DNA of 25,563 nt, from the IMG/VR virus record IMGVR_UViG_3300047403_000115, positions 1-25,563 of that record; one strand, 5' to 3'. Shown here piece by piece: positions 18,973-25,563 of this stretch. The notes beneath the pieces were generated by a model. The model saw nothing but the letters and a program-made list of their open reading frames with translations, did no database searches and was not told the origin of the DNA. A program made the translations under genes and the position numbers. The DNA is from a virus (Duplodnaviria; Caudoviricetes). How positions within the stretch are numbered: position 1 is the first letter of the stretch; every line of letters begins with the position of its first letter.

Positions 18973-20291
18973 TTATCCCGTCCGTTGGCAAAGGTAAGAC
19001 AAAAGGCATCAGCTAGATCGGGGCTTTGAAGTCCTCGTGCCTTGAGATCATCCTTTGATTCTACCTTTATTTTCCCGCTTGACAATACCTCATAGTGAAC
19101 GCTTGTCAATTCCGCGATCAACTTGCGGTCGTCTGGGATATTACAATCCAATGCTTCCAGCCAGCTGCGCGCCTTCCACCAGAGTTCGTCCCTTAATCTC
19201 ATGTATTGTTCGTCGTTCGCGGCGGATTCGGCCACGTTTATCCCTCTGACGGGGAGTTCAAGCTCCCTCAACCGGTCAACCACGCCGGCCCCAATGCCGA
19301 TAACATCCACGAGGATGTCCGATGGTTTGTCATGATCGGCCTCGTATTCCCTGACGATCAGCCCGACGGTCTGCATGAGGGATTTCGCCCGCCAGAACTT
19401 GACGGGCTCGAGAAGGATGTTGCCTTTCCGCTTCGCGAGAGCTGTCGCGTCGGAGCCGTATCTCGCCACGTCGATACCCCAAACGGGCCTTACAGAGCGG
19501 ATTTCGACTTTCCGGCCCATGGCTTTTTCGAGGAGATCCAAGGAGATGACCGAATCATCGTCCACTTTGGGAAACTCTCCCAGGACGCGGACGCGGTAGG
19601 CGTTCGAGTCCCGGCCATATTGGGAGATGATGTCCTCGATATGCCCTCTCGCCTGGGGGACTTCCTCCGAGGAAATGGTCATGGTGAACCATCTATCCCT
19701 TTGAGACGTAAAGGCTCGGAAGAAGAAACCATTGGGCCTGGTAGGATTCCCCACCATCACAATCTTGGCACCGGGGGTACTCAGGGCACCCTGGGCCACT
19801 TCAAATACGATGTCGTCGATACCGGAGGCTTCCTCGACGATGAAGAGAAGATGGGGGCTATGAAACCCCTGCATGGCCTCAGGACGCTCTTTCGATGCCG
19901 TTCTCGCCGCACAGAAAGAACCCCCAGGATCGCTTTTGAGGGCGATTCGTTCCGTCGTCAGGTCAATTTCGTTGCGGATGAATTCAGGTAAGCGTTTGAT
20001 CCAGACCGATAATTCCGCCCAATTGACGTCCCGAAGCTGATCCTGGGAGTTGGCCGTGAAGGGGATTTTACAGGGATAATGTGTGGTGAGGTACCATAGT
20101 ACCACCCAGGAGAGGAAGGCGGTTTTGCCGATGCCGTGGCCGGATTTAATGGCAACACGGTCATGTTTTCCGACGGCTTCTAGGGCCGCTTTTTGCCAGG
20201 GGAACGGTTCGACTTTGAGAATCCGCTCCACAAACATGAGGGGGGATTCTCGGACATCGGCCCAGATTTTAGCGAAGCGGGGGTCGATCAC
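18891..20291 (-). CDS. terL: Terminase large subunit
   Basis: Q motif (PFPWQ), Walker A SGHGIGKT, Walker B FIVEEASG, GNP motif, nuclease motifs GIDVARYGSD and SPDLADA. Confidence 0.95.
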   Translation of the reverse strand: MIDPRFAKIWADVRESPLMFVERILKVEPFPWQKAALEAVGKHDRVAIKSGHGIGKTAFLSWVVLWYLTTHYPCKIPFTANSQDQLRDVNWAELSVWIKRLPEFIRNEIDLTTERIALKSDPGGSFCAARTASKERPEAMQGFHSPHLLFIVEEASGIDDIVFEVAQGALSTPGAKIVMVGNPTRPNGFFFRAFTSQRDRWFTMTISSEEVPQARGHIEDIISQYGRDSNAYRVRVLGEFPKVDDDSVISLDLLEKAMGRKVEIRSVRPVWGIDVARYGSDATALAKRKGNILLEPVKFWRAKSLMQTVGLIVREYEADHDKPSDILVDVIGIGAGVVDRLRELELPVRGINVAESAANDEQYMRLRDELWWKARSWLEALDCNIPDDRKLIAELTSVHYEVLSSGKIKVESKDDLKARGLQSPDLADAFCLTFANGRDKWIENRKMDRYRQRLRPKNRLLTWMAS

Positions 20292-20455
20292 TTTTTGCCG
20301 TGGTAGTTCTTCTGGCCGGGGGCCGCGTGGGCTTTTCTGGCTAGATTCCCGATAACCCCGCCAGGGACACCGGCCGCCTTCAACTGGGCGGCCCGACCGC
20401 CGTAACCTAGTTTGTTGGATTTGCCTTTATACGAACCCGTTTTCTTAACCTTCAT
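20288..20455 (-). CDS. Small Lys/Gly-rich basic protein (55 aa)
   Basis: MKVKKTGSYKGKSNKLGYGGRAAQLKAAGVPGGVIGNLARKAHAAPGQKNYHGKK; starts 2 nt after the upstream stop and overlaps the terL start (GTGA). Confidence 0.7.
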   Translation of the reverse strand: MKVKKTGSYKGKSNKLGYGGRAAQLKAAGVPGGVIGNLARKAHAAPGQKNYHGKK

Positions 20456-20457
20456 GT

Positions 20458-20943
20458 TTACACCGAGAGGTAAATCGTTAACCCGAGTAACGCACCGAAG
20501 ATGGCCTCCCCTACTTCCGGCCCCCGTTTGAGGAACCGTATATCCGAAGGAGTCCGCCATCCCACTTCGTAACACACAGGGGCTAGTGTGGAAAGTAGGA
20601 GCGGCCACCAAGAGCCGAAGAAATATGCAATTGGGAATACGAGGGCGACAAATACAAAGCCACGAACGGCCATCCTCGCGAAATCAGTCCAGTAAGGGGC
20701 TATGCCCCAGACGCGAAGCGTCTCATTCCTTCCTAGATCGATGGACCCCCACCAGGCGGGAATAGAGCCCAGCCAGAGCGCGGGGAACAAAAGGGGCATA
20801 AACCATGCGGGATGGGCGATAAACGCACCAGCGGTCAGCAGAGCGGCATAGACGACACGGGCTATCTGGGTACCACCTAGAGGGATCGCTCCGCCCCTTA
20901 GCCTGAAAGACACCGCCCCCAGGAAGATCAGCAAGAATACCAT
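20458..20943 (-). CDS. Multi-pass membrane protein
   Basis: 161 aa with several hydrophobic segments; FRLRGG near the N-terminus and GEAIFG near the C-terminus. Confidence 0.75.
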   Translation of the reverse strand: MVFLLIFLGAVSFRLRGGAIPLGGTQIARVVYAALLTAGAFIAHPAWFMPLLFPALWLGSIPAWWGSIDLGRNETLRVWGIAPYWTDFARMAVRGFVFVALVFPIAYFFGSWWPLLLSTLAPVCYEVGWRTPSDIRFLKRGPEVGEAIFGALLGLTIYLSV

Positions 20944-21133
20944 AATACCGCAATTCCCTTTTTCAGAATTATAATTTTTTTCAGCACGTTAGACTGGTTC
21001 GCCCCCATTACGGACTGGTTCGCGGTGGGAACGGACCAGTCACTAAAGTCATAGGTCGCCCCATCTTGGATAAGCGGGAGGGGACTCCTAATACCGACCC
21101 CCACCCCCCCTCAATGGGAAGGGGTCGCCCTTT

Positions 21134-21743: not shown

Positions 21744-21749
21744 GCCCAT

Positions 21750-21778
21750 AGTATAGCACGCGCGCGCGAATAACACAA
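21750..21778 (-). promoter_or_regulatory. Sigma70-type promoter for terS (extended -10)
   Basis: Minus strand TTGTGT-N17-TATACT with TG-N directly before the -10 hexamer. Confidence 0.6.
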
Positions 21779-21887
21779 TACGATCGGGCGGTCAAATACC
21801 GTTTTTGCATACCTCCCATGCTGATTTGGGTGTTGAGTTTTCCCCGTATCGTTGGAAAGTGGTTCCGCGACAACAGGAGGAATGAAC

Positions 21888-22559
21888 GTGACAATATCGC
21901 CCCAAACCATCATGCCCGCCGCCGACTATGCGTATCTTGCACAATTTACCAGCGATGATCCAACGCGCGTCAATTTGCATTGCATCCATGTCCGTCGCCT
22001 TGACAGCGGAGAAATTCTCGCCGTCGCCAGCGATGGGGTCGTCCTGGGTTCTCTCGCATACTCGGCCGGCGATCCCGACATTCAATTATCCGTCCCTGCG
22101 GCATATCTAGGGGTAACTGGCGTGCAGCGCCAGCTAATGCAGGCCGCGATCAAGGCCGCGCGCAAAGACGATTCATCCATGTTTGTGGCGCAATACCAAG
22201 ATCGTCTGGCAGTCGGGCGCGCGGAACGCGACGACGACGGCAAACTCATCGGCGTTAAAGTCGAATCCGTGGATCCGAATGCAGCCGCGCCAGATTTGGA
22301 GGCGCCGCTAGATGTTCGCCCTCTTTTCAGGTGGGCAGCTAACGCGCGCCCCGCCGATGTGTGCTCTTACAACGCCGCCATACTGGCGCGCTTTTCGCGC
22401 CCCAAAGACAAAAATGGGACTTTTATTACCTTTGCGCCGAGCGCTGAAGCGGCAGCCATCGTGCGCACACCGGACCCGCGCTTTGTCGGCCTGATTATGC
22501 CGGTTCGCGCCTCAATTACGTACGAGGAATTGATGGCGAGCGGCGAGCAGCTAGCCTAG
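21888..22559 (+). CDS. Truncated DNA polymerase III beta-clamp-like protein
   Basis: FTSDDPTRVNLHCIHV...LAVASDG resembles the clamp domain II pattern (S.DETR..L.G....VATDG); the C-terminal FVGLIMPVR resembles the clamp C-terminus. GTG start 7 nt after AGGAGG. Confidence 0.6.
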   Translation: MTISPQTIMPAADYAYLAQFTSDDPTRVNLHCIHVRRLDSGEILAVASDGVVLGSLAYSAGDPDIQLSVPAAYLGVTGVQRQLMQAAIKAARKDDSSMFVAQYQDRLAVGRAERDDDGKLIGVKVESVDPNAAAPDLEAPLDVRPLFRWAANARPADVCSYNAAILARFSRPKDKNGTFITFAPSAEAAAIVRTPDPRFVGLIMPVRASITYEELMASGEQLA

Positions 22560-22620
22560 AGCGGAGCGGGCGCAGATAGCGCCCGTTCTGCCCTGCGCTA
22601 GGCAGGAAAACAGGAGGAAT
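22551..22620 (+). repeat. 70-bp intergenic hairpin repeat, copy 1
   Basis: 68/70 identical to 22877-22946; contains a stop codon, a long stem-loop and an AGGAGG RBS. Confidence 0.95.
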
Positions 22621-22625
22621 TGATC

Positions 22626-22880
22626 ATGACAGAGGATAATACCATTAGAGCGCCGGCGATCTGGGCCAGCTACATCATCAACGGCGACGCCAGCGGCATG
22701 AATGATGTCGAGATTGCCGCTTGTGCCGCCTACCTGGGCCGCGCGCTCCCCGAAGGGGCCGCGATTGTTTCCTGCGCCGATAATAGCCATTTTTCTTGGA
22801 ACTACGATTTGTACGGCGGAACCGCGCAGGGCGGCGATTTGCTCGAATATTTTTACATTGTTCGCCCGCGCAGGGCCTAG
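22626..22880 (+). CDS. Small phage protein with a WASYIINGDASG motif
   Basis: 84 aa, strong RBS, bounded by the two 70-bp repeats. Confidence 0.8.
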   Translation: MTEDNTIRAPAIWASYIINGDASGMNDVEIAACAAYLGRALPEGAAIVSCADNSHFSWNYDLYGGTAQGGDLLEYFYIVRPRRA

Positions 22881-22946
22881 CCTAGAGCGGAGCGGGCGCA
22901 GGTAGCGCCCGTTCTGCCCTGCGCTAGGCAGGACAACAGGAGGAAT
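22877..22946 (+). repeat. 70-bp intergenic hairpin repeat, copy 2
   Basis: Differs from copy 1 only at one hairpin-loop base and one base before the RBS. Confidence 0.95.
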
Positions 22947-22950
22947 GAAC

Positions 22951-23361
22951 ATGAAGTACGATTGCAGGCTTTCGCTCGCTCGGGCCGGATTCTCGGACCG
23001 CGACGCCAATTCCTTGCGGCGCATCGCCATGACGCTACACCGATGGTTTGAGCTGGAGTGCGGCGACAGCAACAGCTATGGGTCATGGGCGATTGTGCGG
23101 CGCGAGGATGATAGGCCCTTCATCGAGCGCCATATCTGGGCGCGCGGGGCGGGAAAAGACGAGGTAACCTATACTCGCATTCCCGACCGAGAGGCGGGCG
23201 CGAGGCGCAGACTTGCCGATATTATGGCCAAATACCCGGCTTTCGAAGCGTACATCCAGACCGACCCGCGCGGCGCGTCGCTCTACATCGTCCCCAAAAC
23301 GACAATAGGCGACGGTGACATAGCGCAGATTTACCCGCGCGGCATTGCTGTTTGCGAATGA
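22951..23361 (+). CDS. Hypothetical phage protein (LHRW.ELECG / [12 protein letters not shown] motifs)
   Basis: 136 aa; AGGAGG RBS 7 nt upstream of ATG 22951. Confidence 0.8.
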
Positions 23362-23389
23362 GGCTACCCCAAACCCAGGAGGAATGACC

Positions 23390-23884
23390 ATGCATCCCGA
23401 TCAGCTAGACGAGATACTGCGCCTTCATTCTCTGTGGATGCGCGATGAGACTGGCGGACAACGCGCAGATCTGAGCGACGCGATCCTTAACGGCGCTAAC
23501 CTGAGCGACGCGAGCCTGAGCGGCGCGGACCTGCGCCGCGCGAACCTGAGCCACGCGGACCTGTACGGCGCGGACCTGAGCCACGCTTACCTTACCGGAG
23601 CGGACCTGTACGACGCGGACCTACGTCGCGCGAACCTGAGCGGCGTACGCCTTTCCGGCGCGAACCTGCACGGCGTAAAGGGCCTAATTTCTGGCGGCAC
23701 GCCGGACGGATGGACGGCGTTCGGTTGGCTGCGCGATGAGGTCTTGTCCATTCGTGTAGGCTGTCGGGAAAAGCGGCTGGCCGAAGCGCTGGAATATTGG
23801 TCGGGCAAAGAGGATCGGCGGGAAGTTTTGGCAGCCGTTCGCTACATCGCCGAGATTGCCGCAATTCGCGGCTGGCCGGCATGA
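23390..23884 (+). CDS. Pentapeptide repeat protein
   Basis: Tandem A(D/N)Lxx repeats after ILRLHSLW...RADL; C-terminal SIRVGC domain; AGGAGG RBS. Confidence 0.9.
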
Positions 23885-23911
23885 TTAACATCAAAACATA
23901 GGAGAATTGAT

Positions 23912-24037
23912 ATGTTTCGCCTTGAAATGGCTGTTATTTTGGCGAGTACGCTCGCCCTCGTTGCGTTTTCCGCCGTCGTTCTCTTTTGGCCGGAATGGTC
24001 CCGCGATCTGATTAATTATTTCGGGACGACCCCGTGA
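23912..24037 (+). CDS. 41-aa single-pass membrane microprotein (not in ORF track)
   Basis: AGGAG RBS, then MFRLEMAVILASTLALVAFSAVVLFWPEWSRDLINYFGTTP*. Confidence 0.65.
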   Translation: MFRLEMAVILASTLALVAFSAVVLFWPEWSRDLINYFGTTP

Positions 24038-24120
24038 AACGAAGCGCGGGCCGGCAAAAAGGTTGCCGTAATGACATTGATCGACCGCGATGGGGCCTGG
24101 TATCCGGTAAAACAGAGTTT

Positions 24121-24158
24121 CTAAAGAAGTCGGCCAGCCTTGGGGGGGCCGGCCGACT
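24121..24158 (-). terminator. Intrinsic terminator on the minus strand
   Basis: AGTCGGCCGGCC-CCCCCAA-GGCTGGCCGACT (12 bp with one G-U on the minus strand, which is an A-C mismatch on plus) followed by TCTTT. Confidence 0.7.
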
Positions 24159-24224
24159 AATGGATGCGTTGCAGAGCGGTCTATTGCAGCGGTCTCAAAA
24201 ACCGCCAAACCTGTGACAGGGTTT
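24122..24224 (-). ncRNA. Predicted ~100-nt small RNA antisense to a tRNA-Ser-like sequence
   Basis: Bounded by the promoter at 24230-24258 and the terminator at 24121-24158; the 5' ~60 nt are the reverse complement of the tRNA-like body. Confidence 0.5.
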
Positions 24225-24242
24225 CGTGGATTCTAATCCCAT
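24162..24242 (+). pseudogene. Degenerate tRNA-Ser-like sequence (class II body, loop reads CAA, no 3' acceptor strand)
   Basis: GGATGCG, D arm GCAGAGCGGTCTATTGC, anticodon arm GCGGT-CTCAAAA-ACCGC, long variable arm, T arm GTGGA-TTCTAAT-CCCAT. The following AGTGCTT cannot pair with GGATGCG. Confidence 0.75.
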
Positions 24243-24258
24243 AGTGCTTAGCAGTCAA
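24230..24258 (-). promoter_or_regulatory. Near-consensus sigma70 promoter firing leftward through the tRNA-like sequence
   Basis: Minus strand TTGACT (24258-24253) - N17 - TAGAAT (24235-24230); 5/6 match to consensus in each hexamer. Confidence 0.7.
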
Positions 24259-24501
24259 GCACAAAAGTCAATCCCATGTCACCGTGTCTTTGATTTGGGT
24301 GGGCGCGCAAACCGCTTCGGGCGCGCTTGGATTCGTATTTCCGGCATATCCTGCAATACTCCGACCAATTCCACGGGCGATAGCGGCTTGCGGATCTGCT
24401 GGGCTTCCGCTGATAGCGGCGTGAGGCGCGGCGGGGTTAAGACCCTAACGGTAGAATCCCCGTTCAATGCGCTAACCTCCCCATCATGCCTAATCGGTAA
24501 A

Positions 24502-24608
24502 CTATCCACAGACTTATCCACGGGGCTATGCCCCGAGCGCGAAGCGCGGGGATAAGTAAAGACTAAGTCAAGGCCTAGAATAAGAATTAATATTATTAAT
24601 CTTTACTG
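24502..24608. other. Origin-like segment: two DnaA-box-like 9-mers, a GAA mini-hairpin and an AT-rich palindrome
   Basis: CTATCCACA 24502-24510 and TTATCCACG 24514-24522 (one mismatch each to TTATCCACA); GCGC-GAA-GCGC 24537-24547; ATTAATA-T-TATTAAT 24586-24600. Confidence 0.35.
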
Positions 24609-24977
24609 GGTCTTGTCTAGATGCTGGATGGTGAAGGCTGGAGCTTGGGCATAACGCTACTATCCCGATGGTATCGGGGTAGCGTCTGCCCGGGATATGC
24701 TGGACGGAGCCAGGCCATCGCATGGGGCGCGGGCCTGGGGATATTCCCGGCTCGCTCGCGGATTGCTTAACGAGGAATGTCCCCCGCCTTGCTCGGCCCT
24801 TCCGCTTTCACGCTGGCCTGCCGATTTGCAAGATCCCCCAGTATCGGCTTTACTTCCCCCGCCGCTGGTGCCAAAATAGCGCGTCCGACGGGATAACAGA
24901 TTACTAGCACAGAATGGGAGTAAATCAAGTGGACCATAACAAAGGGTGCGACAATTTGACGCAGGGCGGGGAGAATA

Positions 24978-25163
24978 ATGGTTCGTAAGCCGGAGTTCTA
25001 CCCTGAAAATCCTAAGATATGGTCGGAAAAGTCCCTTCACACTATGCGGGAAATGCGGCGCGTACTGGCCGACATGAGGCCCAAGATCGTCGCCATGATG
25101 CGGCAGCGGGGCTTTACGGACAGTGACATTTATTGGCTGCTGGACGAGGTGTGGAAACTGTGA
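24978..25163 (+). CDS. Small hypothetical protein
   Basis: 61-aa ORF with a GGGGAG RBS. Confidence 0.6.
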   Translation: MVRKPEFYPENPKIWSEKSLHTMREMRRVLADMRPKIVAMMRQRGFTDSDIYWLLDEVWKL

Positions 25164-25209
25164 GATCGGTTAAATCGGCGGTCTGGTACTGGGTCCGGGG
25201 AGTAAGCAC

Positions 25210-25371
25210 ATGAATCTCGATGAATTCGCGAGGGGCCATAACGCCTATTGGGATAGAAACCGAAAAGGCCCGGGGTTCGCTGATCCCGCTATCGAATCGG
25301 CCGATTTCATGGTAGGATGGAATACTGCTAAAAACAACGACCAACTCAACGAGGCGTTAAATGAAGATTAA
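25210..25371 (+). CDS. 53-aa hypothetical protein (not in ORF track)
   Basis: GGGGAG RBS, then MNLDEFARGHNAYWDRNRKGPGFADPAIESADFMVGWNTAKNNDQLNEALNED*; overlaps the start of the next ORF. Confidence 0.6.
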   Translation: MNLDEFARGHNAYWDRNRKGPGFADPAIESADFMVGWNTAKNNDQLNEALNED

Positions 25372-25543
25372 CCAACACTATATCGCGTCGTTATGTGCCG
25401 ACATCGGCCACCTCCGGAACTGGATTAGCGATTCCCCCGTTCGCCAGGATGGGGAATGTCGGCAATGGCTGGTCGAAGCCGCGGACGACCTGAAGCGGAT
25501 TATTCAGGTTATGCCTGTTGACAAGGCGGAAAAAGAAGAATAG
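25361..25543 (+). CDS. Small hypothetical protein
   Basis: 60-aa ORF with a GAGG RBS, continuing the run of small plus-strand genes. Confidence 0.6.
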   Translation: MKINQHYIASLCADIGHLRNWISDSPVRQDGECRQWLVEAADDLKRIIQVMPVDKAEKEE

Positions 25544-25546
25544 TAT
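25518..25546 (+). promoter_or_regulatory. Sigma70 promoter for a transcript beyond the window
   Basis: TTGACA-N17-TAGTAT (a TATAAT also overlaps at 25544-25549). Confidence 0.65.
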
Positions 25547-25563
25547 AATAGCACGGGCCGCCC

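Follow-up and report, generated by a model that had tools for sequence, protein, structure and literature searches.

ColE1 RNA I is about 100 nt long, and the C4 antisense RNA of P1 and P7 and the CI RNA of P4 are tRNA-shaped sense RNAs that act on phage mRNAs. In the accessible portion of an account of the ColE1 RNA I/RNA II pair, uncharged tRNA can pair with the regulatory RNAs (PMC4555960). RNAs antisense to tRNA genes, including tRNA-Ser, occur in archaea, with reports on S. solfataricus and T. kodakarensis cited in the available part of a further source (PMC6523106). Intact sense tRNAs encoded by phages replace host tRNAs cleaved by defenses, as far as the available text of two reports goes (PMC11555353, PMC12445682), and tRNA att sites are treated in the accessible parts of 10.64898/2026.04.20.719267 and PMC12429752. 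A search of open-access text turned up no antisense RNA from a phage that targets a host tRNA; examples could exist in supplementary small-RNA tables.

The window considered here, that is, the whole stretch of DNA analyzed, is an entire virus record of 25,563 bp that is 59% complete (41% of the genome is missing). An earlier note had described in it a tRNA-Ser gene turned into an antisense small-RNA unit. The observation itself was confirmed, with small corrections, and the interpretation was partly supported. By the tests applied, the element is not a functional tRNA, a C4-type RNA, or an RNA I, and it is not a convincing att site. The best explanation, with a probability of roughly 0.38, is that an RNA of about 100 nt from the minus strand would pair with host tRNA-Ser(UGA/CGA) and remove this tRNA from decoding.

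The phage and the surroundings of the element

The small terminase gene lies near 21749 and leads into the head and tail genes on the minus strand, and small plus-strand genes with a strong leader in common extend from 21882 onward. This leader, of the AGGAGGAAT type, occurs at 21869, 22604, 22932, 23371, and 23897, and in the gap at 24040-24977 the only complementary stretch found is an 8-mer at 24779 (minus strand). The nearest terminase proteins anywhere show identities of 61 to 63%, and the Sinorhizobium phage phiM5, whose record notes LUZ24-like genes, is among the best named terminase matches (45%); from these matches the phage is taken to be a podovirus-like singleton. A cluster look-up named no host, and a host within the Alphaproteobacteria is plausible by inference.

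The element sits in a 940-bp gap (24038-24977) of the plus-strand early region. About 250 bp to its right is an origin-like segment (24502-24620) with two DnaA-box-like 9-mers at 24502 and 24514 and an AT-rich tract, which also contains a hairpin with a GCGAAGC loop (near 24532-24551) and a minus-strand promoter-like site (24619). A Logan contig of run X1 covers the element stretch with 0 differences, an agreement that is not independent because run X1 may be the origin of the record's DNA. The same run holds contigs of related phage strains over 20286-21105, one of them about 88% identical, and none covers the element. Run X2, which leaves the element uncovered, contributes a single tRNA-like contig (24171-24205) and, close by, two identical pieces of 151 nt. 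Among the runs listed for the stretch, none is an RNA run.

Several other features were recorded around the element. Two 70-nt repeats (22551-22620 and 22877-22946) are 97% identical, each being a strong hairpin followed by the early-gene leader, and the 84-amino-acid gene between them has a weak match to DUF6926; the repeat pair looks like a processing or recombination module. The 138-amino-acid early protein encoded at 22945-23361 has 1235 homologs and invariant ECG and QxDPRG motifs, with no Pfam or PHROG match. The direct repeat TGATTTGGGT(G) occurs at 21822, upstream of the first early gene, and at 24291, just right of the tRNA-like body. The motif TGCTA-N1-4-ACTAT is found three times on the minus strand, at 21758 (terS start), 24253 (promoter spacer), and 25553 (contig end), all promoter-like places, and it may, judged post hoc, be a regulator site. 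On the minus strand at 24796-24895, a weak Rfam match to Betaproteobacteria-1 RNA (27 bits against a gathering value of 49, with an E value of 0.16) is probably due to chance, despite two hairpins there.

The damaged tRNA-Ser body and its opposite strand

The plus strand at 24162..24253 holds a damaged tRNA body of the Ser(UGA/CGA) type, as indicated by blastn, profile, and arm comparisons. The 5' acceptor strand (24162-24168) is followed by the D arm (24171-24187), the anticodon arm (24189-24205), and the variable arm (24207-24224), which are intact and have fully paired stems (4/4, 5/5, and 6/6 pairs, respectively); the T arm (24226-24242) is damaged, with 4/5 stem pairs. The 3' acceptor strand, described earlier as missing, has its place filled by 11 nt (24243..24253) that are of normal length, end in GCA, and are nonfunctional. 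Eight of these 11 bases differ from those that the 5' strand requires, canonical acceptor pairing yields 1 Watson-Crick pair, 4 G-U pairs, and 2 mismatches, and the region constitutes most of the promoter spacer on the opposite strand. The 3' features of a functional tRNA-Ser are absent (no 7-bp acceptor stem, G discriminator, or CCA; the end is AGCA), as is a serine anticodon, with CAA at 24196-24198 instead.

A blastn search with the tRNA body found matches in 14 phage records, and in 13 of these the match falls on an annotated tRNA-Ser. A profile of 83 long-arm tRNAs, with the window left out, detected the body with an E value of 1.3e-9 (an E value of 1.8e-18 from a profile that included the window is circular and was set aside), Rfam gave no tRNA match at an E value of ≤1, and ARAGORN called a tRNA-Leu(CAA) at 24164-24250 with a shifted acceptor register. 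A functional tRNA-Ser was rejected: its D arm, its anticodon stem, and its long variable arm are all of the Ser type, and the acceptor, anticodon, and T-arm invariants fail. A functional tRNA-Leu(CAA) was rejected as well, having a Ser-type D arm and acceptor pairs only in the shifted register; by eye, this D arm was seen in none of the 54 listed matches with a CAA anticodon arm.

The body was compared with 45 intact Ser(UGA/CGA) tRNAs, out of 47 distinct ones, 2 of which were dropped for their different register. Of the first 46 positions, three carry a base with a frequency of <5% in the 45 intact genes (C6, T9, and the central base of the anticodon), against 9/29 from 24225 on. This contrast between the inside and the outside of the predicted transcript (Fisher P = 0.008) disappears if the acceptor loss is taken as a single event (T arm alone, 3/18; P = 0.34). 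The change at position 9 is a G-to-T change at 24170. Six of the 8 acceptor differences are transitions (P = 0.02), a hint of decay, and a sharp boundary, with 24235-24241 fitting the consensus and most later bases departing from it, fits replacement.

On the minus strand, a promoter-like site of the sigma-70 kind, TTGACT-N17-TAGAAT, overlaps the tRNA body just as the earlier note placed it. The predicted -35 hexamer (24258-24253; 5/6) lies 17 nt from the predicted -10 hexamer (24235-24230; 5/6), which consists of the T loop with two changes at invariant tRNA positions. The attribution of the -10 hexamer to these two departures stands, and A24230 and T24234 are each found in 0/45 intact Ser(UGA/CGA) tRNAs; the T arm carries a third change, T24242. 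A perfect 6-bp inverted repeat, GTGCTT-N7-AAGCAC (24244..24262), lies over the -35 hexamer, is present in a single copy in the contig, and is a possible operator. With a start placed 6 to 7 nt past the -10 hexamer, the predicted antisense RNA would run from 24224 to about 24122 (about 103 nt), and no credible ORF lies between the promoter and the terminator-like hairpin.

This hairpin (24158-24128, minus strand) starts 3 nt beyond the tRNA 5' end and has 12 bp including one G-U pair, a 7-nt loop, and a free energy of -24.3 kcal/mol; its fold has a z-score of -5.4 on the minus strand versus -2.4 for a plus-strand stretch. The hairpin and its minus-strand G-U pair agree with the original description, and the reported U-tract is in fact a weak U-tail (24127-24120, TCTTTAGA), present on the minus side only. 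A terminator scan of the contig did not list this hairpin. Of the 8 strong hairpins in the contig, it is the one with the U-richest tail; the tail of the terminator after the capsid region is similarly weak. Inside the predicted RNA, a weak internal hairpin with a U5 run (24219-24192, minus strand) was flagged as terminator-like. This U run is longer as a result of the anticodon change, and a shorter product could be made.

The interval 22000-25563 shows no excess of promoter-like sites (4 seen, 2.2 ± 1.5 expected). Five sites on both strands of the contig have both hexamers at 5/6 or better, this one alone with a 17-nt spacer, and the promoter signal is the quality and position of this single site, not the abundance of its class. 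The chance of a -35 hexamer of at least 5/6 is 0.3% at 17 nt and 0.9% at 16 to 18 nt, three random T-arm changes yield such a -10 hexamer in 0.6 to 1.1% of cases, and among 180 intact tRNA loci an antisense promoter of at least 10/12 occurs in 1, an adjacent hairpin of -15 kcal/mol or lower in 1, and both in 0. All these figures are post hoc, and a set of intact genes is a flawed null where pseudogenes are concerned. The promoter and terminator-like motifs appear to exceed chance, with a weak U-tail. A minus-strand unit is credible, because the arrangement exceeds the chance controls and binding to Ser(UGA/CGA) tRNAs is predicted; the odds of a real transcription unit are judged slightly better than even.

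A comparison with candidate host tRNAs, which the earlier note had proposed, gave no exact match; the best host tRNA differs at 5 of its first 45 nt, and 3 of these differences would be true mismatches for the antisense RNA. The D and anticodon arms matched 19 genome loci, all Ser(UGA), of which 11 are titled Alphaproteobacteria or members of that class, and the variable arm has counterparts in Ser(UGA) and Ser(CGA) genes. Within one class, 14 of 401 genomes matched, one of them through a Ser(CGA) gene with a similar variable arm, and the variable-arm pattern was found in 1 of 401; the 5' end pattern was found in none of the genomes searched. In viral contigs, the exact D-plus-anticodon pattern gave no match, and a relaxed version gave 9 loci, of which one is a 5' half and the other 8 are intact Ser tRNAs. 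A further pattern scan of viral contigs gave 1 match among those listed, judged to be due to chance, and plasmids and phage records yielded tRNA-arm matches only.

No second copy of the element was found in 92 terminase-related loci (12 plus 80, part of this search covering 4/64 parts of the collection) or in 80 of 192 early-gene-related loci, and an ARAGORN pseudogene hit in the locus L030 was rejected as low-complexity coding DNA. Serine arms with the changed T loop were absent among the metagenome matches listed, the changed T loop was seen in 0/26 variable-arm matches listed, and a generic T-loop-to-promoter scan showed no sense-strand tRNA body in 118 of about 140 stretches. Because the collections hold no close relative and the scans were limited in scope, the absence of a second copy neither shows selection nor refutes it.

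Competing explanations

A recently killed phage tRNA-Ser gene, whose 3' end was replaced, which acquired about five point changes, and whose promoter match is incidental, is nearly as probable as the favored explanation. The hairpin would then be an ordinary terminator that shields the early genes from leftward transcription out of the origin-like region, and it could serve the minus-strand promoter-like site at 24619 instead of the one in the T loop. The element is a singleton among the matches of all scans, the body points the same way as the early genes, as a normal phage tRNA would, the consensus ends sharply after 24241, and some coincidences are expected from scanning some 250,000 windows. 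However, this explanation needs the -10 hexamer (about 1%), the spaced -35 hexamer (about 1%), and the abutting hairpin of minus polarity (1/180) jointly, and the D, anticodon, and variable stems of the supposedly dead gene are fully paired. A cis-acting transcript, for which the tRNA sequence was mere raw material, is unlikely. It would collide or pair with an early read-through transcript of the plus strand and so tune the genes from 24978 on, or help to fire the origin-like segment 250 bp behind the unit. The same promoter and hairpin evidence, the location inside the plus-strand early region, the nearby DnaA-box-like 9-mers, and the operator-like palindrome would all suit a cis role, which nevertheless leaves unexplained why the D and anticodon arms are within 5 changes of a host-type tRNA-Ser. 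Moreover, no separate stretch of at least 11 nt complementary to the predicted RNA exists elsewhere in the contig (59% complete), and pairing with the early-gene leaders is not in excess (P = 0.965). The lack of such a partner also speaks against the ColE1 RNA I-like control that had been suggested, and the unit points away from the origin-like segment. A C4-like anti-leader role was rejected because none of four candidate RNAs showed excess pairing (P = 0.21 to 0.97), and the 8-nt matches at the starts of terS and 12408 are no better than expected by chance.

A functional plus-strand RNA, in the form of an uncharged tRNA-like decoy, a processing signal, or a Ser body remolded to Leu, is very unlikely. 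All G-U pairs of the tRNA arms form on the plus strand only, so nothing suggests that the structure has adapted to the minus strand; a shifted acceptor register pairs 6/7, ARAGORN calls Leu(CAA), and the CAA anticodon with A at the discriminator position stands in an anticodon arm that also occurs in intact phage tRNA-Leu(CAA); the excess of transitions in the acceptor would fit as well. Against this reading, CCA is missing and two invariant T-arm bases are lost, the plus strand folds no better than its shuffles (z-score of 0.13) and not as a cloverleaf, and the canonical acceptor pairs, if added, weaken the fold from -14.7 to -12.3. No plus-strand promoter-like site was found near the body, and in a search for a displaced acceptor strand, the 7-mer had 3 matches beyond the element, in each case with no CCA end after it. 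Least probable is the remnant of an att site used for integration at a host tRNA-Ser gene. The usual att crossover cores in tRNA genes are the anticodon loop and the T loop, which are precisely the parts that changed here; in addition, no integrase-like ORF adjoins the element and no exact host match was found, in a contig that is 59% complete. In favor of such a remnant, an integrase is annotated in the related phage phiM5, 41% of the present genome is missing, several metagenome matches are 3' att-like Ser tRNA fragments, and the locus L019 has the 5' half of the same tRNA-Ser type directly after an integrase-like C terminus. In L019 (1492-1630, minus strand), this C terminus is followed by a promoter region and the 5' half only of a tRNA-Ser(UGA), making it an att site with the 5' tRNA part rather than the usual 3' part.

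Predicted pairing with host tRNA-Ser and comparison with known systems

The predicted RNA mirrors the tRNA body over 63 nt (24224 to 24162), and the claimed complementarity to tRNA-Ser was borne out in silico, with about 45 nt predicted to pair with Ser(UGA/CGA) tRNAs. Net binding, calculated without tertiary structure and modifications, averages -38.4 kcal/mol for Ser(UGA) (n = 42), with -29.9 for Ser(CGA) (n = 5), -14.8 for Leu(CAA) (n = 45), and -2.3 ± 1.9 for the shuffled control; these energies follow from homology and are not independent evidence. The anti-anticodon loop UUUUGAG is unpaired only in part (0.3 to 0.6) and could form 5 Watson-Crick and 2 G-U pairs with the Ser UGA loop, 6 and 1 with Ser CGA, 7 and 0 with Leu CAA, and 6 and 1 with Leu UAA. 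The idea that CAA was designed for wobble pairing is weak: CAA is one transition from CGA, and the change turns a Watson-Crick pair with Ser into a G-U pair and does not improve the pairing. The CAA anticodon arm is also common in intact phage tRNA-Leu(CAA) genes (45 distinct; the scan took in 120 of about 270 stretches) and therefore says little for design.

Under the favored explanation of an RNA that acts on host tRNA-Ser, a phage tRNA-Ser gene has lost its acceptor pairing, with two T-loop changes supplying the -10 hexamer, a -35 hexamer 17 nt away, and a hairpin past the tRNA 5' end. Early in infection, host RNA polymerase would start at 24224 and stop near 24122, perhaps controlled by an operator at the -35 hexamer. 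The anti-anticodon loop is predicted to contact the Ser anticodon loop, and the duplex to spread over about 45 nt through the D and anticodon arms and the 5' acceptor strand, unfolding the tRNA. The duplex might be sequestered or degraded, which would reduce the decoding of TCA and TCG and throttle host translation. As the plus-strand gene is dead, there would be no phage tRNA for the RNA to silence. The suggestion that the RNA shields tRNA from anticodon nucleases is unlikely, since a duplexed tRNA cannot decode. In 30 ORFs of the phage there are 52 TCA and 134 TCG codons (186/488, 38% of serines), and the RNA would therefore harm the phage itself. This speaks for an effect that is timed or partial rather than a blanket shut-off, and the timing could come from the palindrome at the -35 hexamer. 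A broader version is put forward tentatively, in which a captured tRNA gene became an anti-tRNA through a T-loop antisense promoter, the acceptor was discarded, and the RNA binds host tRNA-Ser, its 5'-UUG-3' loop fitting all four YRA anticodons (Ser UGA and CGA, Leu UAA and CAA); the locus would then be a snapshot of the origin of an anti-tRNA RNA.

Known phage moves over tRNA are the supply of sense tRNAs or cutting and repair. If the favored explanation is true, a host tRNA would be taken out of use by base pairing, which would be another way, with no protein involved, to control translation codon by codon; the locus would then record how a few mutations turn a tRNA gene into the source of an anti-tRNA RNA. 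The cassette spans about 140 bp and suggests that phage "pseudo-tRNAs" be reread on the opposite strand. If the locus is instead a pseudogene, it is ordinary.

Like the predicted RNA, the archaeal antisense RNAs are complementary to tRNA; as described in the available part of the source, they are cis-antisense to intact cellular genes (PMC6523106), whereas here the unit is phage borne, its sense gene is dead, and it would act in trans on a tRNA of the host. The defense-countering phage tRNAs share with this locus a phage tRNA-derived gene in a conflict over host tRNA, but those covered in the accessible text (PMC11555353, PMC12445682) are sense and intact, while the present element cannot be charged and would be read on the other strand. 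ColE1 RNA I is likewise an antisense RNA of about 100 nt near an origin. In the portion of the ColE1 account available, RNA I has a primer RNA as its partner in cis, of which no equivalent was seen in the contig, and the ColE1 RNAs resemble tRNA in loops, whereas the predicted RNA is tRNA derived over 63 nt. The C4 and CI RNAs are also small phage RNAs with a tRNA connection, from which the predicted RNA differs in having no Rfam C4 match and no excess pairing with phage leaders. In its mode of action, the unit would resemble a trans-acting phage antisense RNA with a tRNA as its target.
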